DNA of 64,000 nt from an uncultured Acidobacteriota bacterium (GCA_963799925.1 CAWCYZ010000002.1:1425025-1489024), one strand, 5' to 3'. Shown: positions 21,140-63,508, numbered from the stretch's first letter. Numbers and translations are program-made. The notes: a model not told the origin generated them from the sequence alone.

Positions 21140-22210
<1,071 letters not shown>

Positions 22211-41234: not shown

Positions 41235-42767
41235 GCTCCCGGCGGCTCGCCCTCGCGATCGAGAGGCGGTGGGCCAGGCCCGCCGCGCCGCCGCGCTCTC
41301 GCCGTTCTCCGGCCCGCCTGCTCGCCCCGCTGGTCTTTCTGGCGCTCCTTCTGGCGCTCCTCGCCCTGCCCTTCCCGGCGCGCGGCCAGGCTCAGCCCGG
41401 CGTCGCGCGCCGCCGAGCCGCAGGGGAGCGAGGCGCCGTTAGGAACCGAGGCGCCGCAGGGGACCGAGCCTCCCCAAGGGACTGAGCCGCCTCCCGCGAG
41501 CCCGCCCCCGGTCGCGCCGCCGCCTGCCGGCCAGGTCCTGCCCCCGAGCCCGCCTCCCGACACCACGGCGGCGCCGCAGGCCGGCGCTCCCGCGCCGGGG
41601 GAGCCGGCGCCGCCGAACGAGCCGGGGAGCGGCTCCGGGTCGGCGGCGGCGGTGCCGGGGACGGCGAGCGGCACCGATCTCTCGGGCCGCGCGACGCGCG
41701 ACAGCTTCCTGCCGCGGCTCGACGTCTACTTTCCCGAGGGCGACCTCGACCTGCGGGTGAGCCGCCTGGTCAACAAGACCTTCTTCGAGGGCCAGGTCAA
41801 GTACAACTTCATCAACGGCGACATCACCGCCTTCCTCCGCTACCGCTACTACAGCTTCCGCCGCATCACCCAGTTCACCGTCTTCGACTCGATCTCGTTT
41901 CCCACCGTCGAGCACTTCTCGAACGACTTCGACCGCGTGCGCGGCGCCCTCATGCTCTTCCAATGGCCGCGCGACTACAACCACCGCACCTTCCTGCTGA
42001 CCGAGGTCGACCGCATCTCGTCGAATACCATCGACCTGCGCTTCAACAACAACAAGACGAACAACTACGTGCGGCTGGGCTATCAGATCGGCACCCCCGA
42101 CGATCCGCGCGCCAATGCCATCGTCGCCGAGACGCGCGCCGAGCGGCAGACGCTGTTCACCGCGGTGCGCGAGATCGGGCCCAACGGCTTCGGCCTGACC
42201 GGCGCCGCGACCTTCTCCTTCTCCAACCTGGGCGGCGACTTCCGCTACATCAAGCTCGAGGGCGAAGCCCTGAAGCGCTTCGACATCTCGGAGAGCACCT
42301 TCCTCGTCTCCCGCCTGCACTTGGGCACCTTCGCCTACGATGTGCGGGTGCGCCCGGCAGATCCCCTGATCAGCCCGCTCGACCAGTACTCGATCCCCCA
42401 CAGCGAGTACTTCGCCCTCGGCGGCCGCGACAACCTGAAGGGCCTGAAGCGGAGCCTCGACGGCACCGACGAGGCGCATGCCACCCTCGAGTACTTCTTT
42501 CCGTGGTTCCTCGACGCCCACAAGGACTTCCTGCGCATCGAGTGGCAGAACTTCTACTGGATCCTCTACTCGGGCATCGGCACCGTGGGGTTCGATCACA
42601 AGGTGTTCACGGGATCGGCGGGCTTCTATCCCGATCTGGGCGTGGGCTTTGAGTCATCGGTGCGGTTCCGCGGAAGGTTCCAGTTCTTCCTCTCCGGCAT
42701 CGTGGCACATACTTTGAAAGGAAGCGGAGGAGTGGAGGCGCGTTTTTCGGTCAAGTCGTACCGCTGA
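41231..42767 (+). pseudogene. Omp85/surface-antigen-like beta-barrel outer membrane protein, apparent frameshift near 41400
   Basis: TTG 41231 overlaps the DUF4388 stop (TTGA). The signal peptide LLAPLVFLALLLALLALPFPARGQA is in one frame. The Pro-rich EAPQGT repeats and the barrel (FALGGRDNLKGL, alternating aromatic strands) are in the frame of track ORF 41652-42767. Confidence 0.6.
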
Positions 42768-42890
42768 CTGGACTGCAGGCGGTGGGTTGACGAGACCGGA
42801 GGGCGTTTCGGATGCGCTTCGCCGCAGTCCGGAGAATCTGCAGGGGCATAGATGTCCCCTGCTGTCCAGGCTCACAGCCGGAGGAGAGAC

Positions 42891-44261
42891 ATGAAACTCA
42901 GATACCTTGTATGTGCGACGCTGTTGGGCCTCGCCCCAACTCTGGCGTTTGCTGGAGAGGAGGCCAACGCCCCGACGGTGACCGGCGAGACGGGGCTGTT
43001 CTCGCTGCTCACGGGCGACACGCTCCCGCGCGGCAACTGGTCGTTCGGGATCTACGCCAACAACTACGACCGGGTGCTCCGCTTGAGCGGGGTCAGCCTG
43101 CCGGGCAAGATCGGCGACCTCGACTGGAACGTCTACAGCGCCAGCCTGGGCGTCGGCATCACCGACCGCTGGGAGGTGAGCGCCTCGATCCCTTACGACG
43201 ACTACCAGTTCCACCACGACCCGCGGGTCGAAGACCTCAACCAGCGCGGGCAGGGCAACGTGCGGGTGGGGACCAAGCTGCGGCTGTTCGGCAATCCAGG
43301 CGATAACAACCTGTTCGCGATCAACGGTTTTGTAGAAGTTCCAACGGGGAAGAAAGAAGTCGTCTCCGACCGCACCGGCTACGGCGTCGGGCTCGACTGG
43401 AGCGTCCGCAACTGGGTGATCGACGTCGGCTACCGCGATCCGGGCGGCCGCTCGGGCGACGGGGTGGTCGTCATCCCCGGCGGCTCCCTCGGCCCCGACG
43501 TCGTCGTCTTCGATCCCACCCGGCGCGACGTCGAGAAGCAGGTGATCGCGGGGATCGGCTACGCCGGCCGCGTCTCCGACCGCCTCGACTGGATCACCGA
43601 GGTCGTCGGCACCTTCAACAACGCCAGCTCGGGTCAGATCCGCTTCAAGGACTCCTACGACGTGACGACCGGCGGCCGCCTCTGGCTGGGCGAGTCGCAG
43701 AACTGGGCCTTCAACTTCGGCCTGCGGGCGGATTTCAACCAGCTCAGCTCGGTCAGCGACCACTGCCCGCTGGGCGGCCTCCTGGGCCTGACCTACTTCC
43801 CGGCGGCCTTCCGCCGGCCGGCGACTCCGCCGCCGCCCCCGCCGCCGCCGCCACCCCCACCGCCGCCGGCTCCGGCTCCGCCGCCGCCCCCGGCCGTCGA
43901 GGCTCCGCCGCCGCCGCCCCCGGCGCCGGCTCCGAAGCCCGAGGAGCGCGTCACGGTCAACTTCACGCCGGGTAGCGCCCGCCTGTCGAACATCGCCAAG
44001 GCGAAGCTCGACGAGGTCGCTCTCAAGATGAAGCAGGACCCGACGCTCCACGCCCAGGTGCAGGGTTACACCGACGCCTCCGGCAACGCCGCCGCCAACC
44101 AGCGGATGTCCGAGCAGCGGGCGCAGGCGGTCAAGAACTACCTGGTGCAGCGCCACGGTATCGATCCCAGCCGGATCACCACCGAGGGCCGCGGCTCGCA
44201 GGATTCGACCGGCAACCCGGCGCAGGACCGTCGCGCCGTGGTCATCCTGACCGTGCAGTAA
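42891..44261 (+). CDS. OmpA family outer membrane protein (barrel + poly-Pro linker + OmpA_C)
   Basis: GGAGGAG SD precedes ATG 42891. Signal MKLRYLVCATLLGLAPTLAFA. A roughly 45-residue Pro-rich linker is followed by the OmpA_C motif GYTDASGNAAANQRMSEQRAQAV...DRRAVVIL. Confidence 0.9.
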   Translation: MKLRYLVCATLLGLAPTLAFAGEEANAPTVTGETGLFSLLTGDTLPRGNWSFGIYANNYDRVLRLSGVSLPGKIGDLDWNVYSASLGVGITDRWEVSASIPYDDYQFHHDPRVEDLNQRGQGNVRVGTKLRLFGNPGDNNLFAINGFVEVPTGKKEVVSDRTGYGVGLDWSVRNWVIDVGYRDPGGRSGDGVVVIPGGSLGPDVVVFDPTRRDVEKQVIAGIGYAGRVSDRLDWITEVVGTFNNASSGQIRFKDSYDVTTGGRLWLGESQNWAFNFGLRADFNQLSSVSDHCPLGGLLGLTYFPAAFRRPATPPPPPPPPPPPPPPAPAPPPPPAVEAPPPPPPAPAPKPEERVTVNFTPGSARLSNIAKAKLDEVALKMKQDPTLHAQVQGYTDASGNAAANQRMSEQRAQAVKNYLVQRHGIDPSRITTEGRGSQDSTGNPAQDRRAVVILTVQ

Positions 44262-46091: not shown

Positions 46092-47579
46092 CTACTCGGC
46101 TCGCGGCACCGTCTCGCCGGCCAGCGCCTCGCGGAGGATCCGCTGCACCTTAGCGGGCTGGGCGCGGCCGCCCGAGCGCTTCATCACCTGTCCGGTCAGG
46201 AAGCCGAGGAGGGTCGCCTTGCCGGCGCGGTACTCGGCCGCTTGAGCGGGGTGGGCGGCGATCACCGCCTCGACCCAGCGGCCGATCTCCCCGGCGTCGC
46301 TCACCTGGGCGAGCCCCAGGCGGTCGACCGCCGCGGCGGGCTCCTCGCCGGTCGCGAAGACGGCGGCGAAGACCTCCTTGGCGGCGGAGACCGAGAGGCG
46401 CCCGGCGTCGACCATGGCGACGAGCGCGGCGAGGTGCGCCGGCGGCAGGGCGGCGGCGAGGTCGGCGGGCTCGAGCCGGCGGCTCTTCATCTCGCGCAGG
46501 CACTCGCCGAGGATCCAGTTGGCGATCCCCTTCGGCGTCGCACGGTGCGCGGAGCCGGCGGGGATGGCCGCCGCGGCGGCCTCGAAGTAGTCGGCGAGCT
46601 CGCGCCAGGCGGTGAGCGCGCGGGCGTCCTCCGCCGTCAGGCCGTGCCGCGCCGCCAGCCGCTCGCGCCGCGCCCAGGGGAGCTCGGGGAGGCGGGCGCG
46701 GAGCGCCGCGACCCGCTCGCCGGTGACGACGAGCGGCGGCAGGTCGGGCTCCGGGAAGTAGCGGTAGTCGTGCGCCTCCTCCTTGCTCCGCGCCAGGCGC
46801 GTCGCGCCGGAGGCGACGTCGAAGCTTCGCGTCTCCTGGGCGACCGTGCCGCCGGCGTCCAAGAGGGCGCTCTGGCGCTCGATCTCGTGCTCGATCGCCC
46901 TTGCCACGTGGCGGAACGAGTTGACGTTCTTGATCTCGACTCGGGTCCCCAGGCGGCTCTCGCCCGGCGGCCGCACCGAGACGTTGACGTCGCAGCGCAG
47001 GCTCCCCTCCTCCATGCTGCCGTCGCTCGTCGCGGTGTAGAGGAGCACGCGGTGGAGGGTCTGGAGATAGTCGTGGGCCTCCTCCGGGCTCGCCATCTCG
47101 GGGCGGGAGACGATCTCGACGAGAGGCACTCCGCAGCGGTTGAAGTCGACGAGGCTCTCGCCGGCGAGGGCGCCGCCGCCGGGCGCCTCGTGGAGGAGCT
47201 TGCCGGCGTCCTCCTCGAGGTGGAGGCGCTCGATGCCCACGCGCTTGTCCGAGTGGGTGAGCGGCAGCGAGCCGTCCTCGGCGAGCGGCCGGTCGTACTG
47301 GCTGATCTGGTAACCCTTGGGGAGGTCGGGGTAGAAGTAGCTCTTCCGCGCGAAGACCGAGGTCTCGCGGATCTCGCAGCCGAGGGCGAGCGCGAGCCGC
47401 ACGGCGAGGTCGACGGCGTGCCCGTTGACCACCGGGAGCGTGCCGGGATAGGCCAGGCAGACCGGGCAGACGAGCGTGTTCGGCGGCTCCCCGAAGCGGT
47501 TCGGGCAGCGGCAGAACATCTTGCTCGCCGTCAGCAGCTGGACGTGGACCTCGAGTCCGATGACTGGCTCGTACGGCAT
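46092..47579 (-). CDS. gatB: Asp-tRNA(Asn)/Glu-tRNA(Gln) amidotransferase subunit B
   Basis: 495 aa. Contains MPYEPVIGLEVHVQL and CDVNVSVR, plus the C-terminal GatB_Yqey-like domain. Confidence 0.95.
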   Translation of the reverse strand: MPYEPVIGLEVHVQLLTASKMFCRCPNRFGEPPNTLVCPVCLAYPGTLPVVNGHAVDLAVRLALALGCEIRETSVFARKSYFYPDLPKGYQISQYDRPLAEDGSLPLTHSDKRVGIERLHLEEDAGKLLHEAPGGGALAGESLVDFNRCGVPLVEIVSRPEMASPEEAHDYLQTLHRVLLYTATSDGSMEEGSLRCDVNVSVRPPGESRLGTRVEIKNVNSFRHVARAIEHEIERQSALLDAGGTVAQETRSFDVASGATRLARSKEEAHDYRYFPEPDLPPLVVTGERVAALRARLPELPWARRERLAARHGLTAEDARALTAWRELADYFEAAAAAIPAGSAHRATPKGIANWILGECLREMKSRRLEPADLAAALPPAHLAALVAMVDAGRLSVSAAKEVFAAVFATGEEPAAAVDRLGLAQVSDAGEIGRWVEAVIAAHPAQAAEYRAGKATLLGFLTGQVMKRSGGRAQPAKVQRILREALAGETVPRAE

Positions 47580-47674
47580 GGTGATGATGGGTAGTGTAGC
47601 CGAAGGCGGCGAGGGGTCGCGCCGCCCGCGCGGCCGTCGCCGCGGTGGTCAGGCGATTAGAATGCCCGTCCATG

Positions 47675-49694
47675 GTGCGTCGTGAAGAGGAGGGACCGGG
47701 AGCGAAAGAGGAGGGAGGGGTCCTGTCTTCGAGCTGCGCTCGTCCAGCGGGTGCGAGTCCCGCCCCGGTAAGCGCCGGAGCGCCGGGTAGCAGGCCCCCG
47801 GAGCGAGGGGAGACCTTCGAGTCCGAAGCGGGGCGTCGAAGAGCCTCTACGGAGGGAGCAAGAACGCGGGCCGCAACATGAAGTGAAGCCTGCAGCCTCG
47901 ACAGATATACAAGGGGAAGCCGAGCCGCTCATGTCACGGCGAAGGCCACGTCCGTCGCGCAGAGGTCCGGAGGAGAAAGCGCGGCGGGTTCCTCCGGGGT
48001 ATGGGGAGCAGCACGCGTTCAAGGAGGAGCACGGAACACGAGAGACCCGTCTGCGCGGCCCTTGTCGGGGCAAGGCGACTCGTATAAGCCGAAGGCGAAG
48101 TCGAGCGTTGCGCAGCGGGAGTCCGAGGGGGTCGTAGTACCGTCGATGGGCGGTGAAGAACAACGCCGCCGGAGGGAAGGGCCCCTGCGGTGGTCATGGC
48201 AGCGGCGGAGGTAAGCGTGAGGGCATGGCCGGCAAGCCCGGTCCCAACCACCCCGCGAGGCGCGAGTCTCGCGACAAAGTGCGACAACTCCAACGCAGTC
48301 TGTGTGCGGCGGCCAAGCGGCAGCCGGGTCGGCGCTTCCACGCCTTGTATGGACCGCATCCACCGGAGTGACGTCCTGTGGGAGGCGTGGAGACGGGTAC
48401 GGCGCAACCGCGGAGCGGCTGGAGTCGATAGCCAGACGCTTCTGGCGGTAGAGCAGAGCGGAGTCGAGGTCTTCCTGGAAGAGCTCGGCGCCGAGCTGCG
48501 AGCAGGCGAGTATCGACCGCGGGCGGTCCTGCGGCGGTACATCCCGAAGGGGGACGGCAAGCAGCGACCGCTGGGGATCCCGACGGTGCGGGACCGGGTG
48601 GTCCAGATGGCGGCGAAGCTGGTGTTGGAGCCGATCTTCGAGGCGGACTTTCGTCCGAGCTCGTACGGCTATCGGCCCCGGCGCAGCGCGACGGATGCCC
48701 TGGAGACCCTGCGCAAGCTGGGCGCTCAAGGGTACAACCACGTGCTGGACGCCGACATCCGGGACTACTTCGGGAGCATCGACCACGAGAAGCTGATGCA
48801 GCTGGTGGAGCGGCGCATCTCGGATCGGCGGGTGCTGAAGTTGCTGCGGCAATGGCTACGGGCAGGAGTGATGGAGGAGGGCGAGGTGACGGCGACGTTG
48901 TCGCGGCACCCCGCAGGGGGGCGTGATCTCGCCCCTGCTGTCGAACCTCTACCTGCACGTGCTCGACACGGTGTGGGAGCGGCGGTGCGCCGCATCTGGG
49001 CGTGCTGGTGCGGTACGTGGACGATTTCGTCGTCGCGTGCCGCACGCGAGGGGCGTGCGAGCAGGCCGAGCGGAGGGTTTCTGAAATCCTCGGCCGGCTC
49101 GAGCCTGAGCCTGCATCCGGAGAAAACGAGGAAGGTGGAGCTATCCCGCGGTCAGGGAGGCTTCGACTTTCTCGGCTGTCACCTGCGCAAGCGCATGAGC
49201 GGTCGGATCTGGGAGAAGGAAGGCCGCAGGGTCTACTTCCTCCACCGCTGGCCGTCGCAGCGCAGCATGAAGCGGGTGCGGCAGCGGATCAAGGAGCTGA
49301 CGCCACGGGGGCGTTGTCACGAGGATCTTCGGCGGGTCATCGCCGCGGTCAACCCCGTGCTCCGTGGCTGGGGCAACTACTTCCGCACCGGAAATGCTGC
49401 GGATAAGCTGAACTCGATCGACCGGTACGTGGAACGGCGACTGAAGCGTACTGCGAGTGCAGCGTGCCGGTCGCAACCTGCGGGCCGGGCAGTTCGAGAG
49501 GTGGCACCGCGGCTATCTCGAAGCCCTCGGTTTAGTCCGTCTGCGCGGCACCATCCAGTACCCGGAGGCTGCGTAATGCCATCGCACGAGAGACCACCGG
49601 TAAGCCGTGTGCCGGAAATCGGCACGCACGGTTTGAAAGGGGGTCTTGACACCCAACCCGGCGGCCTGCCGCCAGGGAAAGTGTAAGGATCTAC
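47675..49694 (+). mobile_element. bacterial group II intron (about 2.0 kb) with internal RT/maturase ORF
   Basis: The 5' end is GTGCG at 47675. Domain V at 49602-49634 is AAGCCGUGUGCCGGAAAUCGGCACGCACGGUUU, with the AGC triad, GAAA loop and AC bulge. A long domain VI helix spans 49642-49691 with unpaired A residues. The 3' end ...CUAC at 49694 is estimated, +/-10 nt. Confidence 0.85.
48225..49576 (+). pseudogene. group II intron reverse transcriptase/maturase, at least 5 frameshifts
   Basis: RT0-RT7 and X-domain sequence is spread over three frames: [27 protein letters not shown] / [25 protein letters not shown]...[10 protein letters not shown] / [21 protein letters not shown] / [10 protein letters not shown] / [11 protein letters not shown]...GWGNYFR / [27 protein letters not shown]. 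No HNH/En domain is present. Confidence 0.85.
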
Positions 49695-49696
49695 CA

Positions 49697-49789
49697 ATGG
49701 AGCATCGTGAAGAGGAGAGACCCGGAGTAGGTGAGGTGGGGAGGGGGCCCGTCTTCGAGCTGTGCTCATCCAGCGGGTGCGAGTCCCGC
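49697..49789 (+). repeat. diverged partial second copy of the intron 5' end (about 93 nt)
   Basis: Aligns with 47672-47763, roughly 80 percent identical by eye. The identical core is GTCTTCGAGCTG.GCTC.TCCAGCGGGTGCGAGTCCCGC. The 5' pentamer is GAGCA instead of GTGCG. Confidence 0.75.
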
Positions 49790-49955
49790 GGTCGGCGGCG
49801 CCCTCGTCTCGCCCCGCCATGCCAACATCATCGTCAACCGCGGCGGCGCCACCGCCGCCGACGTGCGGGCGCTCGTCGCGCGCATTCAAGAGGACGTCGC
49901 GGCGAAGACCGGCTACCACCCGCGGCCGGAGATCTCGTTCGTGGGGGAGTTCTAG
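49790..49955 (+). pseudogene. murB: 3'-terminal fragment of UDP-N-acetylenolpyruvoylglucosamine reductase (murB), last ~55 codons only
   Basis: Reads VGGALVSPRHANIIVNRGGATAADVRALVARIQEDVAAKTGYHPRPEISFVGEF then stop. This matches the conserved MurB C-terminus (GGA.VS.KHANFIVN..ATA.DV). No upstream murB sequence is present. Confidence 0.7.
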
Positions 49956-49960
49956 CCTGG

Positions 49961-52303
49961 CTAAGCGACCACGACCAGGATTCCAGCGATGAAGGAGCAC
50001 TTCATGATCTCGATCGCCAGTTGCCGGCCGCCGGGACGCGTCCATGCGAACGCTGCAGCGCCTATCGATGCCGAGTAGAGCAACAACGCGACCAGAGCGC
50101 CTTTTCCAGCGCCGGCGACAGCCACAAATGCGCACAGCGGCACCAGCGACGCCATGATCCCGAGGAATCCGTAGCGTGCGGCGCGCGCTTCACTCCAGCA
50201 CATTGCAAGCGTACGCAGACCAACGAGACGGTCGCCCTCGATGTCCCGAATGTCCATGAGAAGCTCTCTGCCCGCGACAAATAAGAAACAAGCCATGCTC
50301 GCCAAGACGAACCGCACAGGTAGCCTGAAAGCCAGCAGATCAAAGATGAGGATGAGGCTGCAAAGGAAGGCCGTGACCAGCCCTTTGCCTGCAGGCCACC
50401 GTCTCACCAGCTCGTTGTAGGCGAAACCGCCGGTGCAACCCACAAGGAAGATTAGAAGAGCTAGCGGGCTCAGACCGTGCGCTCCGATGATGACGGCGCA
50501 GAGAAAGAACAGCAGCGAGGCGAAGAGAGCCTCCTTCTCCGAGAGCTTGCCGCTAGGGATCGCTCGCTGCGGAGCGTTGACGACGTCCCGCTCCTGATCG
50601 TAGTAGTCGTTGAGAGCAAAGCTGGACATCGCCGCCAAGGCCACACCCAGGGCCAGCCGGGCAGAGTATTCGACCGGAGCTCCCGTGGCGACGCCTATCG
50701 AGATGATACCGGCGAATACGATGAGCGCCGTGATGGCGCGCGCGGACTGCAGGGTCCCGGTGAGCACACGCCAAACGCTGTAGCGCAGCGAAGCTCTGGT
50801 GCCAACATCCGTCGTCAGTGCAGGCTTGACATCGCCGCCCTGACGAGCCGTTGTCCTTTCTGAATCGGACTGATTGAACAAGGCCAGCATGCTCAACACA
50901 ATCGTCATGACAGCGTACACCCAGAACGCGACGCCTGCCCGCGCCGCTATTCCTGGGGATCGACCCTGCACAATCTCATACACAATATCGTTGATCATGA
51001 AGAGGATACCGGATAGAACGGCAGCGTGAAGAAAAACGGCGGAGCGGCGTTTCAGGCTGATGAAGCCAACCGTCAGGTCATGTAAGGTGCGGTTCTTGCC
51101 GTCGCCTCGCGTAAGGTAGTGGACCATCGGCGTCGCCAGGAAGGCCAACAACACGGCGACAAAGAGTGACGCAGAGATTCCGCTAACCTTCGCCGGATAG
51201 AGATCGGGGACCGCCGTACTGACCGCGACATCGCTCGCAACGATAGCAAAAACGGCAAAGCCGAAAATCAGCTTGAGCAGTTTCCAGCCGGACCTCCATG
51301 CTCGGAGAGCCTCGATGCGCGCGGGCTCTCCAGCACGATACCAGACGACGAGGGCCACTACGGAGTGCAGGAGCGTGAGAACGAGAAACAGCAGGCCGAA
51401 TGACCCGATTACGAACATCAGGGGGAGAAGAAGGAGCGCCACCGCATGCGAGACAAGGGTCGCGTTGAAATACCTGGCAATCTGCGCCTCACGGTCTTCT
51501 CCGCTGAGCCCACGTCCGGCGGACAGTGCCGTGGCGCGCCATAGCTCAAAGAGCGACAGATAGAGGCCCAGAGCAAAGGCGACCACCAACATCGAGGCCC
51601 AGTGAGCCATGAACTTGCCCACGGCTCTCTGGCCGATCAGTGCCAAGAGAGGCGCCACGAGGAACATCCCTATCGAAACCGCGGCAAATCTCAACGCTCC
51701 GATCCGCCGGTGACGTTCCGCGTAGTGGAGCAGGAAATACAGAACGAACACGGACGCTGGGATGGCGTAGAGCCACGCGCTGAAGGCAGGAGTCCTGAGG
51801 GTGGCTCCCACAAAAAACGCGAAAGAGACGATGAGCAGAGGTGTGAAAGTCTCGAAGCGAACGCGATGGAGGATCTCCGGTTTGCGGAAGTAGAAGACGA
51901 GCAGTGCGGCCGCAAAGTAGTAGTGAAGGACCGCCAGGAGACCGAGATAGCCCAGCTGGGCGCCGGTGAGATCGTTGCCCACAGAAGCGACCAGCACCCC
52001 TGCCTTCCAGAGGGCGAAGGGCACGACCACCATTCCAATGCTGACGCCGATCGACATCCTTGCCCCGAAAGGAAGGCGTCTTCTCTCGCCCTCTACTTTC
52101 GGCTCGGGGGAATTCTCATAGACCACGACATAGACAACGTACGGAGGAAGCAGGACAAATGCGTAGAGAATGAGGGACCAGGGCCACAGCTTCGTGACCT
52201 CGTTCGCGCGGTAGTAATCGCCACAGAGAAGGGCTCCGAGAGTCACCAGCCAGTACGCGAGGCCGCGGAAGAGGAGATTCATGGAGTCGAGAGATTCGTT
52301 CAC
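49961..52303 (-). CDS. 780-aa polytopic membrane protein: unknown ~500-aa N-terminal multi-TM domain fused to C-terminal UbiA-family prenyltransferase domain
   Basis: The ORF is intact. UbiA Asp-rich motifs are LNDYYDQERD and MDIRDIEGD in the last ~275 aa (about 49964-50790). A/T content is clearly higher than in the neighbours. Confidence 0.8.
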   Translation of the reverse strand: MNESLDSMNLLFRGLAYWLVTLGALLCGDYYRANEVTKLWPWSLILYAFVLLPPYVVYVVVYENSPEPKVEGERRRLPFGARMSIGVSIGMVVVPFALWKAGVLVASVGNDLTGAQLGYLGLLAVLHYYFAAALLVFYFRKPEILHRVRFETFTPLLIVSFAFFVGATLRTPAFSAWLYAIPASVFVLYFLLHYAERHRRIGALRFAAVSIGMFLVAPLLALIGQRAVGKFMAHWASMLVVAFALGLYLSLFELWRATALSAGRGLSGEDREAQIARYFNATLVSHAVALLLLPLMFVIGSFGLLFLVLTLLHSVVALVVWYRAGEPARIEALRAWRSGWKLLKLIFGFAVFAIVASDVAVSTAVPDLYPAKVSGISASLFVAVLLAFLATPMVHYLTRGDGKNRTLHDLTVGFISLKRRSAVFLHAAVLSGILFMINDIVYEIVQGRSPGIAARAGVAFWVYAVMTIVLSMLALFNQSDSERTTARQGGDVKPALTTDVGTRASLRYSVWRVLTGTLQSARAITALIVFAGIISIGVATGAPVEYSARLALGVALAAMSSFALNDYYDQERDVVNAPQRAIPSGKLSEKEALFASLLFFLCAVIIGAHGLSPLALLIFLVGCTGGFAYNELVRRWPAGKGLVTAFLCSLILIFDLLAFRLPVRFVLASMACFLFVAGRELLMDIRDIEGDRLVGLRTLAMCWSEARAARYGFLGIMASLVPLCAFVAVAGAGKGALVALLLYSASIGAAAFAWTRPGGRQLAIEIMKCSFIAGILVVVA

Positions 52304-52551
52304 CGCCTCACCTCATCTCCGAGCTCTCTTACCCATGACCTCCAGGCAGCAGATCCCACAGAACGAAAGGGTCTTGCTGGACCCACGGACACACCCCCCA
52401 ATCGCGGCCGAACGCTATCACAGCGTCGCCAGCCGCCGGAGCGTTGCGAGCCGCCTGGTCCCCGTCTCAAATCGAAGAGGTGTCAAGACATCCGACCAGC
52501 CAGTCAGTCGGCGCGCCCTGCCCCTTGCCAGCTTTCCAGCGCGCGCTCCGC

Positions 52552-52800
52552 TCACCCCTTGACGAACGTCCCCCGCTCGACGTCCTTTCGCACCCCCGGG
52601 AACGCCAGCACCCGCCCGTGGGCGACGCAGTAGACGCCGGGCCCCAGGAGGCCGGCGGCGAAGATCGCCTCGGTCAAGTTCTGGAGGGCGTCGGAGCGCT
52701 TCATCTCGAAGGGGCGGAGAGCGCCGGTCAGGACGATTGGCACCCGCGGCCGGGGGATGCGGGCGTAGAGCCGCTCGCCGCCAGGCTCGCCGGGCTCGGT
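52552..52800 (-). pseudogene. internal fragment of an L-asparaginase-family gene
   Basis: Reads RLYARIPRPRVPIVLTGALRPFEMKRSDALQNLTEAIFAAGLLGPGVYCVAHGRVLAFPGVRKD, matching the asparaginase PVVLTGA.RP...DA..NL core. Both the N-terminal catalytic part and the C-terminal domain are missing. Confidence 0.5.
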
Positions 52801-53056
52801 TCGCTCGGTCGGTTCAGTTGGCTCGACAAAGGCCGGCCGACGCCGAGGGCGCCGAGGAGAATCCCACTCGCGGGGCGTGAAGCCGGGCTCCTCCCCCGCC
52901 GGCCCGGCAGACCCCCGCGCGGCGGAGGGCGGCGCCGGCCGGCCCCTGTCGAACCGACCGAGCCGACGGGCCGGGCGACCGGTCCCGCTGCTCCCAGAAC
53001 TCGCGGAGGCCTGGAGCTACGCCCGGGGCGCCGGGCCGCACCCTGACGCCGGCGAC

Positions 53057-53495
53057 GTGCCGCTGCTCCGTGTCTCCACCTGCTTCGTCAGCGGCCGGCG
53101 AGAGGGGATCGTGCCCGAGCGCGTGCTTCCCCTGGCGGCCTCGGCGCACGGGCGTGGCGAGCTCGACCTCAGTACGCTCCTGGCGGAGCTCGAAGAGCGC
53201 TGCCGGGGGATCCACGAGCAGCATGCCGAGGGTGCCGGGGTCGAGGGGCCGCTCGTCGAAGCGGGCGCCGAGCAGGCTGAGCGCCATGGCTTCCATGACG
53301 TCTACACCCTGACCAAAGCCCTAGGAGAGCTCGTGCTGGTGCGCGATCAGGGAGCGGTTCCCCTCACCATCGTCCGCCCCGCCATCGTCGAGAGCGCCGT
53401 CGAGAAGCCCATGGCGGGGTGGATCGACGCGGTCCGCGTCGCCGATCCCCTGTTGGGCGCCTACGGGCGGGCTCGCGTCAGCGCCCTGCCCAGCG
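53057..53495 (+). pseudogene. internal fragment of a fatty acyl-CoA/thioester reductase (NAD_binding_4, male-sterility type) gene
   Basis: Contains LLRVSTCFVSG, GFHDVYTLTKALGELVL, LTIVRPAIVESAVEKPMAGWIDAVRVADPLLGAYG. The Rossmann GxxGxxG N-terminus and the C-terminus are absent. Confidence 0.6.
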
Positions 53496-53589
53496 CCCAG
53501 ACGCGCCCAGGGTCCGGGCGCTGTCGCGTGCCTTGAGCCGGCTGCCCGGCTGGCGCTCGACCCGGCTCGGACCCCGCCTGGGCAGCACC

Positions 53590-53920
53590 GAGCGTGCGCT
53601 GGACCATTTCATCCACCGCCGCGCATGGGCTTCGAGGTGACCGAGGGCTACGGGCTGAAGGAGACCAGCCCGGTGCTGACGGCCAACCCGCGGCGAGCGG
53701 TGCGCCTGGGGTCGGTCGGCAAGCCGCTGCCGGGCGTCGAGGTCGAAGTGCGGCCCGTGGAGGGCGCGGAGCCCGGCGCGGGGGAGATCTTTGTGCGCGG
53801 CCCCAACGTCATATCGGGCTACCGGAACTCCGAGGCTTCGGCCGCCGCGCTGCGCGACGGCTGGTTCTGCACGGGAGACGTCGGTCGCCTCGATGCCGAG
53901 GGGTACCTCCATCTCGGGCC
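53590..53920 (+). pseudogene. internal fragment of an AMP-dependent acyl-CoA synthetase gene
   Basis: Contains GFEVTEGYGLKETSPV, GSVGKPLPGVEVEV, GEIFVRGPNVISGY and DGWFCTGDVGRLDAEGYLHL. It then breaks off. The upstream ~300 aa and the C-terminal subdomain are missing. Confidence 0.65.
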
Positions 53921-54601
53921 GGTCGGCGGGGGCACCGCTCAAGGGGGTCGACGTCAAGCTGGGCAAGAACGGCGGCGGTGGCGCGAGCCCGCACGAAGAC
54001 GGACGGGGAGGGCCGATCGAAGCTCCCGTGGTGCCCGCGGGCTCGTACGTCCTGACCTTCGAGCTCCCCCCGCCGGCGAAGACAGCGGAGCCGGGCGCCG
54101 CCGCGCGGCAGGGAGCCGTGCCGGCCGCCCAGATGGCTGCGATCGAGATCGAGGGCGGGGCGGGCGGGAAGGCGACGGTGACCTGGGACTTCGCGCGCCA
54201 GGTGCCTTATGACCCGTCGCCTGTCTGCTCGTCGTAGGTCTTCTCGATGGTGCCGCCGGTGGTGTGAGGCGATGTGGCGCATCAGCCCTCGGCGGAGCGG
54301 CGGCCGCTGGACGCGGAGCTGCTCCAGGTGCCGAAGGCGTGGCGCAGGTGGGGATGACGATCTCCGCCCACCACCAGGGCGACGTCATCGCGTCGTGCAG
54401 CTCGGCGTCGGCAGGCCGGCCTCGACGCACTGGATCAGTGTAGTCGACGTAGTCGTCGCAGCGCAGCACCATCGAGGCCACCATTGGTGCGGCGTCGAGC
54501 GCGCCGCCGCGTAGGCGGCGTGTCGAGTTGAAGAAGCGTTGAGCAGGTGACGAGAGGATGGTGTAGGGTAGGGAAGAGTTGAGTGGAGAGGGAAGGGGGA
54601 A

Positions 54602-54613
54602 GGGGGGGGGGGG
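54602..54613 (+). repeat. G12 homopolymer abutting the pgeF start codon, within a G-rich tract
   Basis: Sequence GGGTAGGGAAGAGTTGAGTGGAGAGGGAAGGGGGAAGGGGGGGGGGGG then ATG at 54614. Confidence 0.9.
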
Positions 54614-55348
54614 ATGGCGACCGCGCATCAGGAGCCCTCGGCGCTCGGCCTCGCCGGGCCGGCCGCCGGTCGCGGCTACACGGTCTGGAGCGGCAGCTTC
54701 GGGGATCTCGAGGTCCGCTTCGTCGGCCGCGGGCCGGCGGCGAGCCGCAGGCGACGCGAGGAGATCCTCTCGCGGATCGAGCCGGTGCCGCCGGTCTCGC
54801 CGCCGGTCGCCTGGGCTCGCCAGGTCCACTCGGCGGACGTGCTCGCGGCCGTCGCCGGCGAGTGCGGGGCGGGCGACGCGCTGTGGACCGCCGAAGCCGG
54901 CCTCGCGCTCTCGATCGCCACGGCCGATTGCGTGCCGGTCCTCCTCGCCGGTCCCGAGGGGCTCGCGGCGGTCCATGCCGGCTGGCGCGGGCTCGCCGCC
55001 GGGATCATCCCCCGTACCCTCGAGACGGTCGCGGCGTCGCTCGGCGCCGATCCGGCGCGCTGGAGCGCCTGGATCGGCCCGTCGATCGGCTCCTGCTGCT
55101 ACGAGGTGGGCGACGACGTGGCGAGGCAGGTCGCGGCGGCGAGCACGCCGGCGGTCGTCCTCGCCGGCCCCGCCGGGAAGCCTCACCTGGACCTGACCGG
55201 CGCCGCGCTCGCCCAGCTCCGCGCCGCGGGCGTCGGCGCCATGGCACGGCTCTCCGCCTGCACCCGGTGCGACGCGGCGGCGCTCTGGAGCTATCGGCGG
55301 GAGGGGAAGGGCGCCGGGCGGAACATCGGATTCATCTGGCGCCGGTGA
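54614..55348 (+). CDS. pgeF: YfiH/PgeF (DUF152, laccase-domain) peptidoglycan editing factor family protein
   Basis: 244 aa. Contains QVHSADV, TADCVPVLL, VHAGWRG and GPSIGSCCYEVG. Confidence 0.85.
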   Translation: MATAHQEPSALGLAGPAAGRGYTVWSGSFGDLEVRFVGRGPAASRRRREEILSRIEPVPPVSPPVAWARQVHSADVLAAVAGECGAGDALWTAEAGLALSIATADCVPVLLAGPEGLAAVHAGWRGLAAGIIPRTLETVAASLGADPARWSAWIGPSIGSCCYEVGDDVARQVAAASTPAVVLAGPAGKPHLDLTGAALAQLRAAGVGAMARLSACTRCDAAALWSYRREGKGAGRNIGFIWRR

Positions 55349-55367: not shown

Positions 55368-56471
55368 CTACGTCGCCGCCGGCCGGCGCGGGCGCGGTCC
55401 GCGCGGGTCGCGGCCGAAGGCCCGGAGCTGGCCGCAGGCGGCGGCGACGTCGTCGCCGCGCGGCCGGCGGACGGTCGCGGTGAGGCCCCGCCACTTCAAG
55501 CGCTCGGCGAAGGCATCGATCGCCTCGCGTCCCGGCGGCACCATCGCCTCGCCCAACACCGGGTCGGGGTTGATCGGGATCAGGTTCACCTTGGCGCGGC
55601 GGGCGCCGAGGAGGCGCACCAGCGCATCGGCATCGCGCGGGGCATCGTTGAAGCCGCGGATGAGGATGTATTCATAGGTGATCTTGCGCCCTTTCTCGAG
55701 GGGGTAGCGGTCGAGCGCCGCCATCAGCTCCGCCAGCGGGTACTGCCGGTTGAGCGGCATCACCCGGCTCCGGCGCTCGTCGTCCGGCGCATGCAGGGAG
55801 ACCGCCAGGTTGGGCCGCCGCGGCCAGCGCGCCAGCTCCTCGATCCCCGGGATGACGCCGGCGGTCGACACCGTGATGCGGCGCAGCGAGATCTCCTCGC
55901 CCAGGATGTCGATCGCGCCCTCTACGCTCGCCAGGTTGAGCAGCGGCTCGCCCATCCCCATGAAGACCAGGTTCAGGCCCGGCGCGGGGAGGCCGCGGTC
56001 GGCGCGCACCGCCGCCACCTGGCCCACGATCTCGCCCGCCGTCAGGCTTCGCCCCGCGCCCCAGTAGCCGGTGACGCAGAAGGTGCAGGCGAGGGCGCAG
56101 CCCGCCTGGCTCGACAGGCAGAGGGTGCGGCGGTCGCGGTCCGGGATGTCGACGGCCTCGACCGTGGCGCCGTCCGCCAGCCGGAAGAGGTACTTGGCCG
56201 TGCCGTCCGCCGAGAGGTGGCGCGACGCGATCTCCGGCAGGCCGATGCGGAAGCGCTCGGCGAGCGCCGCGCGGAGCGCCTGCGGCACGTCGGTCATCGC
56301 CGCGAAGTCGGTGGCGCCGCGGCGGTGGAGCGCGTCGTAGATCTGCTCGACGCGGAACGGCCGATCGACCAGGCCGCCGATCTCGCGGCCGAGCCGCTCG
56401 CGGCTGCAGCCGAGGAGGTCGAGGCGGGGGTCGCCGTCGGCCGGCGCAGAGGGGTGCGGAGCTTCGTTCAT
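55368..56471 (-). CDS. rlmN: 23S rRNA/tRNA adenine-C2 methyltransferase RlmN (radical SAM)
   Basis: 367 aa from ATG 56471. Contains FRVEQIYDALH and the radical SAM cluster CLSSQAGCALACTFCVTG. The track ORF extends artefactually to 56825. Confidence 0.9.
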   Translation of the reverse strand: MNEAPHPSAPADGDPRLDLLGCSRERLGREIGGLVDRPFRVEQIYDALHRRGATDFAAMTDVPQALRAALAERFRIGLPEIASRHLSADGTAKYLFRLADGATVEAVDIPDRDRRTLCLSSQAGCALACTFCVTGYWGAGRSLTAGEIVGQVAAVRADRGLPAPGLNLVFMGMGEPLLNLASVEGAIDILGEEISLRRITVSTAGVIPGIEELARWPRRPNLAVSLHAPDDERRSRVMPLNRQYPLAELMAALDRYPLEKGRKITYEYILIRGFNDAPRDADALVRLLGARRAKVNLIPINPDPVLGEAMVPPGREAIDAFAERLKWRGLTATVRRPRGDDVAAACGQLRAFGRDPRGPRPRRPAAT

Positions 56472-56500
56472 GGGACCGGCTGGCGCGCGCCGGCGCGCCG

Positions 56501-56779
56501 TCAGCCGGTGCGGCGGCGGCGCAGGCGCCGCGTGGGATCGATTCCGATCGACTTCAGGAACGAGAGGTCGCGGCCGTTGATCTGGAAGGCCGGATCGGCG
56601 GGAGAGCTCGTGGCGCGCGGCGCGGAGAGCGCGAGCGACTCCTCGCCGCTGCTGTCGCGCTTGCAGTCGACCAGCAGATAGAGCGAGTAGCCCTCCTCGC
56701 GGATCTTGCGCAGCGAGCGGCTCACCTCCGTCGATTCCGAGATCGCGTCGGAGAGAGCGCGGCGCAAGTCGCGCAGCAT
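56501..56779 (-). CDS. small hypothetical protein
   Basis: 92 aa with high third-position G+C. No recognisable motif. Confidence 0.45.
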   Translation of the reverse strand: MLRDLRRALSDAISESTEVSRSLRKIREEGYSLYLLVDCKRDSSGEESLALSAPRATSSPADPAFQINGRDLSFLKSIGIDPTRRLRRRRTG

Positions 56780-57006
56780 CTGGTGCAGCTTGTCGTCCAG
56801 ACTCGAGACCTCCCGGCCGACTCAACGACGTTGCTCTTGGGAGCGGGCCGACGCCGGATTATGGCCCTCCCCCGAGCGGGGTGTCAAACCGTTCGAGACC
56901 TCCAACAAAGGTGCCGGAAAGCCCATTCCCAGCGGCCTTCGTGCACCCTCGCGGCAGCCCGCCCGCGTGGTAGCCTCGCGCTCCGGGGAACCTCGAAAGA
57001 CGCCGC

Positions 57007-62843: not shown

Positions 62844-63191
62844 TCAAAGGGGCAGGAACTCGACTCGGTTGGCGAGCTCATGAGGTTCCATGGCTTCTGC
62901 GATCAGGTGGAGATCGCGGATGCAGTCGCCAATGGTCACATGGAGCTGGTGTGCGTAGAGGACTCCCGCGAAGGGAATCCCCTCCTCCTGGCGCCGCCGC
63001 GCCTCGGCCAGCAGATCCTCATCTTGGGAGAAGAGAGGGCGGCCCAGCTCGGTCGCCCGGTCCAGCAGCAGCGGATCGGCGATCCCTCGGCGATCGTCGT
63101 CCTGGGGCGTCATGACATCGACGCCTCGCAGGCGCAGCCCGGTTGTAATAGCCCGCGGGACGTTCTCGTCCAGGTAGAGCGCAAGGCTCAA
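62844..63191 (-). CDS. DUF5615 (PIN-like, Mut7-C related) putative toxin
   Basis: 115 aa. The start is LYLDENVPRAITTGLRLRGVDV. It overlaps the upstream DUF433 gene by 4 nt. Confidence 0.75.
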   Translation of the reverse strand: MSLALYLDENVPRAITTGLRLRGVDVMTPQDDDRRGIADPLLLDRATELGRPLFSQDEDLLAEARRRQEEGIPFAGVLYAHQLHVTIGDCIRDLHLIAEAMEPHELANRVEFLPL

Positions 63192-63508
63192 CGGGAGATG
63201 CGGCGAAGCTTGGCTGCGAGAGGAGAGGGGCCGGCCTCCTGCCGGGCCTGCTCGGCGTAGCGGAAGCGGCGCTCGATGTCAGCATCCAGCTCGTCCTTAT
63301 GGTCCCAGTAGTAGGCGAGAGCGGTATGAATTTGCCCAAGCGACAGACTGGGAAACTGGAAATGCAGCTCCTCCGGGCTCCACCCGTGAGCCTGCTGCGC
63401 CATGACGAGCTCCACGACCTTCATCGTCGTTCCCGCGAGCACCGGCGAGCCCTGCGCGTCGGCGGTGAGATGTGGATACGCTGGATTGGTTGTAGCAGGC
63501 TCACCCAT
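63188..63508 (-). CDS. DUF433 putative antitoxin
   Basis: 106 aa from ATG 63508. Contains GSPVLAGTTMKVVELV...GWSPEELHFQFPSLSLGQIHTALAYYWDH. Confidence 0.8.
   Translation of the reverse strand: MGEPATTNPAYPHLTADAQGSPVLAGTTMKVVELVMAQQAHGWSPEELHFQFPSLSLGQIHTALAYYWDHKDELDADIERRFRYAEQARQEAGPSPLAAKLRRISR

Follow-up and report, generated by a model that had tools for sequence, protein, structure and literature searches.

A low-G+C gene fusing a predicted 14-helix membrane domain to a UbiA prenyltransferase, inserted in an Acidobacteriota chromosome

The inserted island and its empty site

The window (the whole 64,000-nt stretch of DNA that was analysed) is part of a chromosome of Thermoanaerobaculia (Acidobacteriota) and carries an intact foreign gene within an inserted segment of 6.9 kb. 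The features of this region are as follows.

46092-47579, minus strand: gatB, host gene at the island's left border (gene calls and gene order of the relative L024)
47676-54613, no strand: inserted island, 6,938 bp, ATGG at either side, G+C 66.4%
47745-49662, plus strand: group II intron, decayed (Rfam D1-D4 and D5-D6 matches)
49697-49789, plus strand: second copy of a direct repeat of about 92 nt, abutting the murB fragment (first copy 47672-47763)
49785-49955, plus strand: C-terminal fragment of MurB covering roughly its final 55 codons (matches solved MurB structures at E 4.7e-8)
49961-52303, minus strand: N-domain/UbiA fusion ORF, intact, 780 aa, every codon open
52304-52551, minus strand: non-coding region upstream of the fusion ORF, containing a GAGG Shine-Dalgarno-like motif
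52552-53016, minus strand: asparaginase fragment (Pfam match limited to profile positions 104-160 of 193)
52877-53536, plus strand: NAD_binding_4 (reductase) fragment (profile positions 131-238 of 258)
53625-54212, plus strand: AMP-binding enzyme C-terminal fragment (profile positions 314-383 of 384)
54614-55348, plus strand: pgeF/YfiH-type Cu-oxidase_4 gene, host gene at the right border, its native upstream region displaced by the insertion

An earlier sequence-only reading had singled out the fusion ORF as an intact 780-aa gene of lower G+C than its surroundings. The ORF is real, beginning at a GTG four codons past an in-frame stop, and computation bears out the difference in composition: G+C is 59.9%, versus 72.6% across the remaining window, lower than in any other sliding window of 2,343 bp (about -3.3 SD from a mean of 72.2%, with SD 3.8%), and GC3 is 0.72, versus 0.90-0.98 in the flanking host genes, with similar values in the two halves of the gene (0.72 and 0.74). 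A scan upstream of the ORF for the sigma-70 consensus, which says little for Acidobacteria, detected no promoter site.

The close relative L024 is syntenic with the window and lacks the island; its gatB is 96% identical to that of the window and is separated from pgeF by only 93 bp. By blastn, L024 positions 2006-9907 correspond to window positions 62420-54614 at 94.6% identity, and 9904-21488 to 47675-36088 at 96.8%, while the right edge of the island falls exactly on the pgeF start codon. Since gatB and pgeF are next to each other in L024 but are separated by the 6,938-bp island in the window, the horizontal acquisition that had been proposed for this membrane enzyme is directly demonstrated.

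The rest of the island is in decay. The intron matches RF02003 (80.3 bits) and RF00029 (42.3 bits), and its RT/maturase ORF (48190-49686) is broken by frameshift; RVT_1 covers profile positions 1-107 of 205, GIIM is also present, and the YVDD motif lies in a different frame, within ORF 49002-49406. The two direct repeats are 76-92% identical at a spacing of 2,025 nt, the second consisting of the intron's 5' flank plus the first intron bases. The murB fragment reported beside the gene is real, convergent and 5 nt from the fusion ORF's stop, and the remaining neighbours are gene fragments as well. The gene had also been described as solitary, and in agreement with this the neighbour scan, which covered selected genes within 38.8-62.1 kb (leaving out other long ORFs such as the RlmN-like 55368-56858), gave no match to polyprenyl synthase, ubi/men or glycosyltransferase families and no GGGP synthase or G1P dehydrogenase. 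STAND, iSTAND, MoxR and DedA partners are absent from the window, as judged by tblastn with the relatives' neighbour proteins and by Pfam searches of the flanking genes. More speculatively, the window copy would be an orphan cargo gene without partner genes, and it may be unexpressed, because it lies among pseudogene fragments.

The two halves of the fusion protein

The product is a bipartite integral membrane protein with about 23 TM helices (AF2 model: pLDDT 88.5, pTM 0.82). Its parts, all on the minus strand, are these.

50870-52303, minus strand: N-domain, aa 1-478, 14 predicted TM helices (hydropathy, loop charges, AF2 helices)
51839-51865, minus strand: conserved cytoplasmic loop RVRFETFTP, aa 147-155 (R149 invariant, P155 at least 90% conserved)
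51530-51568, minus strand: N-domain signature GLYLSLFELWRAT, aa 246-258
50753-50869, minus strand: inter-domain linker, aa 479-517, basic (six K/R), of low model confidence and variable in alignment
49964-50752, minus strand: UbiA-superfamily prenyltransferase domain, aa 518-780, of a DGGGPS/ChlG-like clade
50585-50611, minus strand: first Asp-rich motif NDYYDQERD, aa 565-573 (N565, D566, D569, D573)
50231-50254, minus strand: second Asp-rich motif DIRDIEGD, aa 684-691 (D684, D687, D691)

Judged by its residues, the C-terminal third is a catalytically complete UbiA enzyme, with all of the Mg2+/prenyl-diphosphate-binding positions present. Both Asp-rich motifs are where they had been read from the sequence, and PF01040, whose cutoff is 34.2 bits, matches aa 534-758 with 97.5 bits and E 1e-27. 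Across the family, the N and D566 of the first motif occur in 42 of 43 sequences and D569 and D573 in 41 of 41; the second motif is kept in 40-41 of 41-43, and R580, Y629 and K640 are present here and invariant. The model of this domain has pLDDT mostly > 90, and Foldseek pairs it, at probability 1.00, with 7bpu/6m31 (TMt 0.70, E 3e-5) and 4od5 (TMt 0.75), in agreement with the 8-9 TM all-helical fold of the superfamily. The UbiA active site is cytoplasmic, as known from structures 4OD5, 4TQ3 and 6M31.

The best match in both sequence (6m31, E 3.7e-12) and fold is digeranylgeranylglyceryl phosphate synthase (DGGGPS) from Methanocaldococcus jannaschii (6M31/7BPU), which shares with the C-domain both the NDxxDxxxD and DxxDxxxD motifs and an all-helical membrane fold. 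Identity is, however, only about 18%; the top NCBIfam matches, PRK12884 and PRK12882, are each under cutoff, with the DGGGPS models PRK12882/12883 reaching 92.7 bits against 296 and 69.9 against 353. Moreover, the host of the fusion is bacterial, with no archaeal-lipid partner genes among those scanned, and DGGGPS lacks the additional 480-aa, 14-TM domain. ChlG/BchG (PDB 9SAS, E 1.6e-7; PRK07566, TIGR01476) is the second-closest clade, but the 58.4 and 54.5 bits obtained are far under the respective cutoffs of 313 and 212, and no photosynthesis genes are found among those scanned. Rv3806c-type decaprenyl-phosphate phosphoribosyltransferases (PRTases; 8J8J/8J8K) have the UbiA fold in common with the C-domain (Foldseek E 0.036), and their pathway, which leads to an envelope glycan via polyprenyl-phosphate carriers, would go well with the DedA and GT-C genes that adjoin the gene in some relatives; they differ in using PRPP as donor, for which the fusion protein offers no support, and in having no sequence-level match to it, either in PDB sequences at E <= 1 or in NCBIfam at E <= 0.01. 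A recent duplication of the host's own UbiA has been rejected: L024 has a separate UbiA, adjoining CofH_C/radical-SAM genes, which is 31% identical to the window C-domain over 158 aa.

The N-terminal part had been described as about a dozen hydrophobic helices with no recognisable motif. Its multi-TM nature stands, with a slightly higher count of 14 predicted in about 480 aa, and its loops carry 32 K+R inside versus 7 outside, in keeping with the positive-inside rule and a predicted cytoplasmic N-terminus; the protein begins 9 aa ahead of TM1, with no additional domain there. A second AF2 model used for the N-domain has pLDDT 80.8 and pTM 0.84, while the linker core (residues 481-500) falls to pLDDT 51-56 in the model of the full protein. 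All of the residues that are invariant in a 24-sequence alignment of the N-domain -- G28, R149, Y248, W255, T258, F306 and W321 -- are found in the window sequence; three of them, Y248, W255 and T258, lie in the signature GLYLSLFELWRAT, together with E253, which is at least 90% conserved family-wide. No Pfam or NCBIfam match was obtained, sequence-profile searches of the PDB and fold searches of BFVD gave only noise, and there is no recognisable catalytic motif. Foldseek likewise detected no match to GT-C or arabinosyltransferase-type enzymes (save ALG3, E 2.9, probability 0.08), SEDS, Wzx/MurJ or WaaL. On PLSDB plasmids the N-domain has no match, and the UbiA domain alone matches archaeal DGGGPS and ChlG genes. 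The N-domain thus constitutes a previously undescribed domain family.

Relatives and their neighbourhoods

A profile search of 1.84 billion proteins yielded only 50 representatives of the N-domain family, scattered across phyla; each of the ten clusters checked holds 1-3 MAG or metagenome sequences. Neither IMG/VR viral contigs nor INPHARED phages gave a match to the fusion. Full-length alignment shows 65% identity with P0001 and 40% with P0002; the JGI names of relatives are "geranylgeranylglycerol-phosphate geranylgeranyltransferase" (P0002, P0004, P0015) and "4-hydroxybenzoate polyprenyltransferase" (P0009/P0010). The search for the same architecture in other genomes shows that in this rare family fusion is the usual form rather than an isolated case: 41 of 53 N-domain family members carry UbiA. 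In L025-27 the N-domain (497 aa) and UbiA (275 aa) have separate genes with an overlap of 4 nt, and in L009 and L015 the two genes share one operon. These split-form UbiAs score 98-118 bits to the window C-domain, and family UbiAs 98-141 bits, versus at most 30 for unrelated ones. The N-domain is almost never found apart from this same UbiA clade, being mostly fused to it and otherwise encoded by an adjacent or overlapping gene.

Both domains are under purifying selection, with the N-domain evolving faster; dN/dS is 0.24 for the N-domain and 0.13 for the C-domain against L001, and 0.50 and 0.20 between L002 and L010. The value of 0.20 against the nearest homolog reflects lineage history, not time after insertion.

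The family gene is also of lower GC3 than its neighbours in other hosts (0.39/0.84, 0.40/0.82, 0.51/0.77 and 0.62/0.79). Neighbour genes, in the relatives as around the window copy, come from a home-made ORF caller and are annotated in part. P0002 adjoins an integrase, AAA_25 and an HTH_17 excisionase-type protein; the L012 copy lies between a comM fragment and a Tn7-like TniQ, that of L016 beside an rve integrase, and that of L025 beside RepB_primase, a plasmid-type primase. The family might, on a more speculative note, be regarded as a mobile accessory cassette, often compositionally foreign and in several cases lying beside integrases, TniQ or primase.

Conflict-operon wiring is seen in 2 of about 16 independent lineages. 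The L003/L004 operon encodes an nSTAND NTPase, a TM-NTPase, an EAD7-fusion and a DedA-like protein. L009/L015 have a PNP_UDP_1-iSTAND protein, a MoxR-like AAA protein and a further protein whose C-terminal part is the N-domain; an integrase and IS3 lie close by. The modules that some relatives carry ahead of the N-domain, a Trans_reg_C winged helix and EAD7, are both cytoplasmic, which supports the predicted topology. Effector sites of the iSTAND/MoxR/vWA ternary and EAD-coupled conflict systems described by Kaur, Burroughs, Iyer and Aravind (2020, eLife, PMC7159879), from which the EAD and iSTAND logic applied here is taken, correspond to the arrangement of P0049, whose gene directly follows an nSTAND NTPase and whose N-terminal domain is EAD7-like, and also to that of L009/L015, in which the N-domain forms the variable C-terminal end of the third component, beside PNP_UDP_1-iSTAND and MoxR-like AAA. 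There are differences: the EAD7 match in P0049 (E 1.2e-6, 28.6 bits) is under the Pfam gathering score of 32, a PDB search detected no vWA domain in the N-terminal 660 aa of P0017, and the window protein has neither a fused effector-associated domain nor an NTPase neighbour. BLAST, an insensitive method here, gave nothing when the partner proteins of the L003 operon were searched for another EAD7, and PADLOC-DB 2.0 gave no match for the window protein, P0002 or P0049. The text of PMC7159879 does not mention prenyltransferases or UbiA, and in the literature found on UbiA in connection with EAD, STAND, anti-phage functions, defence islands or fusions, this architecture is not described.

Genes for DedA/VTT-domain proteins (PF09335), which are not homologs of the fusion and are absent from the window, recur as neighbours in three independent lineages, which hints at a lipid carrier. 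DedA-family proteins move polyprenyl-phosphate or phospholipid across the membrane and have been implicated in undecaprenyl-phosphate recycling. The L007 copy lies in a surface-glycan locus with two PMT-type GT-C glycosyltransferases, cytidylyltransferases, LytR_C and a Polysacc_synt_2 dehydratase.

Possible roles of the fusion

On balance, the gene probably encodes a membrane prenyltransferase that is mobile, consists of two modules and has membrane or polyprenyl lipids as its targets, with a link to conflict or envelope remodelling that we infer from the relatives. The two modules would operate as a single unit on the cytoplasmic side of the membrane. There, UbiA would use N565/D566/D569/D573 and D684/D687/D691 to hold a (poly)prenyl diphosphate, ionise it and then alkylate a membrane-embedded acceptor. 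The polar residues R149, E253 and T258 of the N-domain are predicted to be on the same face as the UbiA active site, and this placement, with the coupling of the two modules, suggests that the N-domain binds, delivers or gates the lipid acceptor or product. The reaction would yield either a membrane lipid that has been prenylated (ether-type) or a polyprenyl carrier in modified form; the enzyme would therefore alter membrane or envelope lipid chemistry. Because family members occupy effector positions in STAND/iSTAND operons of two lineages, their selective value may come from inter-genomic conflict or from remodelling of the envelope, and not from core metabolism. It is a good deal less probable that the N-domain/UbiA pair is specifically a STAND/iSTAND-triggered immune effector of a new, membrane-lipid-directed class, in which alkylation or drain of an essential membrane lipid or of the polyprenyl-phosphate carrier pool would stop envelope synthesis and abort infection. 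Triggering would then come via EAD7, or through the pair's place as variable C-terminal module of a ternary system, and solo copies, such as that of the window, would be mobile stand-alone weapons or protective membrane modifications.

An enzyme of surface-glycan or lipid-carrier synthesis, in which UbiA would make a polyprenyl-phosphate-linked precursor by analogy with Rv3806c and the N-domain would be glycosyltransferase-, polymerase- or flippase-like, is doubtful to about the same degree. The surface-glycan genes around the L007 copy fit such a biosynthetic role, as do the DedA/VTT neighbours in three lineages and the fold-level Foldseek match to the membrane PRTase 8j8j (E 0.036); low G+C and mobility would also match variable O-antigen or capsule genes, variable glycan loci typically holding low-G+C multi-TM genes. 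The L007 gene is, however, alien in composition to its locus (GC3 0.39 vs 0.84), so that its glycan neighbours may be incidental, and no glycan genes lie near the window copy among the genes scanned. Nor do sequence searches at the above thresholds link the UbiA domain to Rv3806c-type enzymes, or fold searches the N-domain to GT-C, SEDS, Wzx/MurJ or WaaL. A far less likely proposal is an ordinary biosynthetic UbiA -- a DGGGP synthase, chlorophyll synthase or quinone prenyltransferase -- with an accessory membrane anchor. DGGGP synthases and ChlG do head the NCBIfam, PDB and plasmid matches, and source databases (JGI) name relatives accordingly, but the protein scores far below all equivalog cutoffs (101 vs 269, 93 vs 296, 58 vs 313), a conserved 480-aa domain far exceeds an anchor, and pathway partners are not seen close by among the genes scanned. 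The family is, besides, very rare and scattered over phyla, and the gene must be dispensable, since a 95-97% identical relative does without it while keeping its own separate UbiA (31% identical over 158 aa).

The gene could instead be a silent hitch-hiker, open but unexpressed, a functionless remnant on its way to becoming a pseudogene in decaying DNA, as the broken state of the rest of the 6.9-kb island (intron RT; murB, asparaginase, NAD_binding_4 and AMP-binding fragments) and the lack of partner genes and of a recognisable promoter might suggest. Against this, all 780 codons are open, the family-invariant and catalytic residues are all kept, a Shine-Dalgarno-like motif precedes the start, and dN/dS is 0.20 against the nearest homolog (as a record of lineage history), which makes the proposal rather improbable. 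Somewhat better placed than any of these, though still unlikely, and compatible with the preferred two-module prenyltransferase, is the idea that the N-domain is a diverged, catalytically dead UbiA-like duplicate, giving an intramolecular pseudo-heterodimer. In the N-domain-only Foldseek search the two top PDB matches are MjDGGGPS 7bpu/6m31 (probability 1.00, TMt 0.48-0.50), with AfUbiA 4tq4_B at TMt 0.49, and some solved UbiA-family enzymes are oligomers, an example being the C3-symmetric Rv3806c entry 8j8j. But the E-values are just 0.05-0.09 at an rmsd of about 8.5 A, hhalign gives the N-domain profile a probability of 0.6% against the C-domain profile and detects no internal repeat among N-domain segments, and there are 14 helices versus 9, with the Asp-rich motifs absent. 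An assembly chimera, with low-G+C sequence stitched in silico onto a contig from Thermoanaerobaculia, is barely credible. The window is probably metagenome-derived, and exact-sequence look-up of the fusion protein and of the window's gatB found no record in the public collection, hence no independent copy; yet both island flanks are collinear with one contig of the relative, the junctions are base-precise and share ATGG, and the resumption of synteny beyond the island, unexpected for a chimera, has led to the rejection of this explanation.

UbiA enzymes are known for housekeeping roles in the synthesis of quinones, haem O, chlorophyll, archaeal lipids and arabinan precursors. By contrast, the clade described here is tied to a hitherto undescribed 14-helix domain, has been transferred horizontally across phyla and in some genomes takes the place of the effector in NTPase-based conflict systems. 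If the proposed role is correct, prenylation of lipids or lipid carriers would be added to the chemistries of bacterial immunity or envelope variation. Even if the effector proposal fails, the N-domain is a confidently modelled new membrane fold family with a clear functional partner, and it is therefore tractable by experiment. The filled site in the window and the empty site in a relative with 95-97% identical flanks form a natural experiment.

The island between gatB and pgeF and its single intact gene

The fusion gene is a recently acquired, intact gene encoding a bipartite membrane protein, and it is the sole intact gene of the island in which it lies. The features concerned are:

47676-54613, island between gatB and pgeF
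47672-47763 and 49697-49789, direct repeat of ~92 nt bracketing the intron (76-92% identity, spacing 2,025 nt)
47745-49662 (+), group II intron (Rfam D1-D4-4 at 47745-47881, D5-D6 at 49600-49662)
murB 3' end fragment, in the island, convergent with the fusion gene
49961-52303 (-), fusion gene, 780 aa
52552-54212, three gene fragments (asparaginase, NAD_binding_4, AMP-binding enzyme), partly overlapping on opposite strands at 52877-53016
54570-54616, purine- and G-rich tract at the end of the island

The host is a bacterium of the Thermoanaerobaculia (Acidobacteriota), the class to which all named best matches of its GatB belong, and a 96% identical GatB is encoded on L024, a JGI contig of a close relative. 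This contig runs collinear with the window to the left and right of the island (DNA identity 94.6% and 96.8%), with a gatB-pgeF gap of 93 bp versus 6,938 bp in the window. The island junctions are base-precise, with ATGG common to both, and the right one falls exactly at the pgeF start codon. These junctions and the collinear flanks rule out an assembly chimera and show that the island was gained recently or is polymorphic. The terminal tract (…GGAGAGGGAAGGGGGAAGGGGGGGGGGGGG) lies directly against the pgeF ATG, so that pgeF is without its native upstream region as compared with L024.

The sequence-only reading had described an intact ORF of lower G+C than its neighbours, set beside a convergent murB fragment and other gene fragments, away from polyprenyl synthase, ubi/men and glycosyltransferase genes, and had proposed horizontal acquisition; all of this holds, for the pathway genes within the set of ORFs scanned. 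The frame is uninterrupted, with a GTG start four codons past an in-frame stop and a GAGG Shine-Dalgarno-like motif upstream. Its computed G+C of 59.9% (the remainder of the window has 72.6%) is the minimum of all 2,343-bp windows (~3.3 SD under the mean), and its GC3 is 0.72, with host genes at 0.90-0.98. This foreign composition joins the absence of the island from the collinear relative in pointing to acquisition; the two halves of the gene are equal in composition, so it arrived as a single unit. The MurB C-terminal fragment ends 5 nt from its stop. Among the scanned subset of ORFs from 38.8 to 62.1 kb, no prenyl-diphosphate synthase, ubi/men or glycosyltransferase family was matched.

The group II intron sits just within the left end of the island. 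Its RT/maturase ORF (48190-49686) is frameshifted, with the RVT_1 profile matched over the first half only and the YVDD catalytic motif in a different frame (ORF 49002-49406); the intron-encoded protein looks dead, or else the sequence carries frameshift errors. Repeat copy 2 duplicates the 5' flank of the intron plus about its first 13 nt (GTGCGAGTCCCGC), is followed directly by the murB 3' fragment, and has the appearance of a second, truncated intron copy or of a recombination scar. The island ORFs that were scanned include no integrase.

Architecture of the fusion protein

The C-terminal domain is a UbiA-superfamily enzyme (aa 534-758 in Pfam, E 1e-27), with archaeal DGGGP synthase as its closest clade and chlorophyll synthase (ChlG) as the second closest. 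Both Asp-rich motifs noticed in the sequence-only reading are present, NDYYDQERD at aa 565-573 and DIRDIEGD at aa 684-691. NCBIfam scores are 101 bits for PRK12884, 93 for PRK12882 and 58 for ChlG; matches to PDB sequences include 6m31 (E 3.7e-12) and 9sas (1.6e-7), and Foldseek gives TMt 0.70 for 7bpu/6m31 and 0.75 for 4od5. All the NCBIfam scores are far below the equivalog cutoffs, and the domain lies outside every characterised equivalog. Residues N565, D566, D569, D573, R580, Y629, K640, R679, E680, D684, D687 and D691 are near-invariant family-wide; because these key residues are conserved, the domain is taken to be an active transferase, with a predicted dependence on Mg2+ and prenyl diphosphate. 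Nor is it a duplicate of the UbiA native to the lineage: L024 encodes, at 1-1047, a 312-aa stand-alone UbiA beside a radical-SAM/CofH_C gene, mapping just past the right end of the window, which is just 31% identical to the window domain over 158 aa and probably serves the lineage as its housekeeping (menaquinone-type) prenyltransferase.

For the N-terminal part, the dozen or so hydrophobic helices first noticed by eye become 14 TM helices in the first ~480 aa (hydropathy and AF2 model), and the lack of any recognised motif is confirmed by the absence of Pfam and NCBIfam matches. AF2 with the family alignment gave confident models both for the full length (pLDDT 88.5, pTM 0.82) and for the N-domain only (80.8 and 0.84), and the high pTM suggests that the two domains may pack together within the membrane. 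The distribution of positive charges (K+R 32 vs 7) favours an N-in topology with 14 TM helices, which makes the linker cytoplasmic together with the UbiA N-terminus; in solved UbiA structures that terminus also lies in the cytoplasm. The signature xYLxxFExWRxT of the N-domain (E253, W255, T258), with R149 also among the invariant polar residues, would then lie on the cytoplasmic side, to which the active site of UbiA opens. Independent support for this topology comes from the only N-terminal additions found in relatives, both of them cytoplasmic modules: P0046 carries a Trans_reg_C winged helix and P0049 an EAD7-like domain.

No convincing fold relative was found by Foldseek with the N-domain-only model. 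An origin of this domain as a degenerate, pseudo-UbiA module, which would be compatible with the proposed joint action of the two domains, is possible at low probability: its top two PDB fold matches are both MjDGGGPS (prob 1.00, E 0.05-0.09, TMt 0.48-0.50, rmsd ~8.5 A) and AfUbiA gives TMt 0.49, but there is no profile-profile signal between the N- and C-domains, nor an internal repeat.

The family and its genomic contexts

A word-indexed search of 5.8 billion clusters returned two full-length homologs (65% and 40% identity), and GTDB representative genomes contain one, in another Thermoanaerobaculia MAG. With a profile of the N-domain alone, HMMER run exhaustively over 1.84 billion representatives gave 50 proteins at E <= 1e-3, mostly of 740-870 aa. 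PF01040 is present in 41 of the 53 aligned family sequences; the other 12 are mainly shorter (105-546 aa), together with the 1,132-aa P0017, and both of the two checked are split forms. In L025-L027 the two parts are encoded separately, by an N-domain gene (497 aa) and a UbiA gene (275 aa) that overlap by 4 nt, and in L009 and L015 the N-domain forms the C-terminus of a 1,132-1,138-aa protein, with a stand-alone UbiA three genes upstream. The split UbiAs score 98-118 bits against the window C-domain, versus <=30 bits for unrelated UbiAs, and therefore fall into one clade with the fused UbiAs. The prevalence of fusion, the adjacency of the split genes and this clade specificity argue strongly for joint action of the two modules. 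Both modules are under purifying selection, the N-domain evolving faster (dN/dS for N-domain and C-domain in three pairs: 0.24/0.13, 0.50/0.20 and 0.13/0.11). In a look-up of ten clusters, each contained 1-3 sequences, all of metagenome or MAG origin, and the annotation never went beyond "UbiA family prenyltransferase" or a guessed name; a taxon is named for two of them (Zixibacteria, Bacteroidota). Family loci span 33% to 69% G+C. The literature searched does not describe this architecture, nor do Pfam, NCBIfam or PADLOC, which has no model for the fusion protein; what is novel is a UbiA prenyltransferase that has a new obligate partner domain and is linked, unexpectedly, to mobile elements and NTPase conflict systems.

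The contexts of family genes are non-uniform across loci, with four recurring themes: mobility, foreign composition, conflict systems, and hints of a lipid-carrier or envelope role. P0002 adjoins an integrase, an AAA_25 protein and an HTH_17 excisionase-type protein; L009 has an integrase and IS3, L016 an rve integrase and L017 a DUF932 gene; in the window, the mobility theme takes the form of the intron-bearing insertion. The split pair at L025 380-3952 (also in L026 and L027) adjoins a RepB_primase gene, which suggests a small plasmid or mobile element. At L012 6798-11959 the family gene has a truncated comM-like gene (ChlI/Mg_chelatase) on one side and a TniQ gene on the other, and resembles terminal cargo of a Tn7-like element that has inserted into comM. 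Several copies differ in GC3 from their neighbours:

GC3 of family genes and of neighbouring genes
L007: family gene 0.39, neighbours 0.84
L012: family gene 0.40, neighbours 0.82
L020: family gene 0.51, neighbours 0.77
L001: family gene 0.62, neighbours 0.79
L002: family gene 0.82, neighbours 0.94

Mobile-element neighbours and foreign composition thus recur in the family; that it behaves as a mobile accessory cassette is more speculative. No family member was found in phage and viral collections, the N-domain does not occur among 72,556 plasmids, and in a plasmid tblastn the C-domain matched only haloarchaeal DGGGPS and ChlG genes (~30% identity).

In L003 (5794-13534) and L004 the operon opens with an nSTAND NTPase, followed by a TM-NTPase (939-948 aa, multi-TM at its N-terminus, its P-loop region weak), the N-domain/UbiA fusion with its EAD7-like domain, and a DedA-like protein of 235 aa; BLAST detected no second EAD7 copy in the L003 operon. 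DedA/VTT neighbours, a hint of a lipid-carrier or envelope role, occur in three independent lineages. L009 (6064-13399) and L015 (1762-9125) share the order stand-alone UbiA, PNP_UDP_1-iSTAND (642 aa), MoxR-like AAA (331-333 aa) and the large protein, whose first 660 aa hold no detectable domain, vWA included; a 247-269-aa protein lies upstream of this set and, in L023, ahead of the fusion gene as well. By the scheme of Kaur et al. 2020 (PMC7159879), the family positions in L003/L004 and L009/L015 are effector positions; prenyltransferases go unmentioned there. At L005 196-5664 and L017 3911-9815, Trans_reg_C (an OmpR/ToxR-type winged helix) is fused N-terminally to the N-domain/UbiA protein, which could be a membrane-bound one-component regulator; the gene stands back to back with a small operon whose products include a ThiF/E1-like protein and one that weakly matches JAB. 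None of these conflict or envelope partners is present in the window.

Proposed function and alternatives

The UbiA clade is active-looking, and the 14-TM domain is new and obligately coupled to it. The two would act as a single catalytic machine on the inner side of the membrane, moving a prenyl chain onto a membrane-embedded acceptor handled by the N-domain, and the niche of the family may be accessory, in conflict or envelope remodelling, rather than in core metabolism. This functional reading draws on context, and the window copy has none of the informative partners beside it.

An enzyme of a glycan or lipid-carrier pathway is an unlikely alternative; one family copy does have surface-glycan genes around it, two GT-C enzymes among them, and is clearly foreign there. 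That the gene is a silent relic seems distinctly improbable. An ordinary biosynthetic UbiA is given very little credence beside the coupled machine proposed here, and an assembly artefact almost none, in view of the precise junctions and the collinearity with L024.

The fragments at 52552-54212 have a high, host-like G+C (73%) despite their place inside the island; another Thermoanaerobaculia genome may be their source. Lesser G+C dips (0.63-0.66) occur in the window at 35001-36000, 42001-43000 and 63001-64000.
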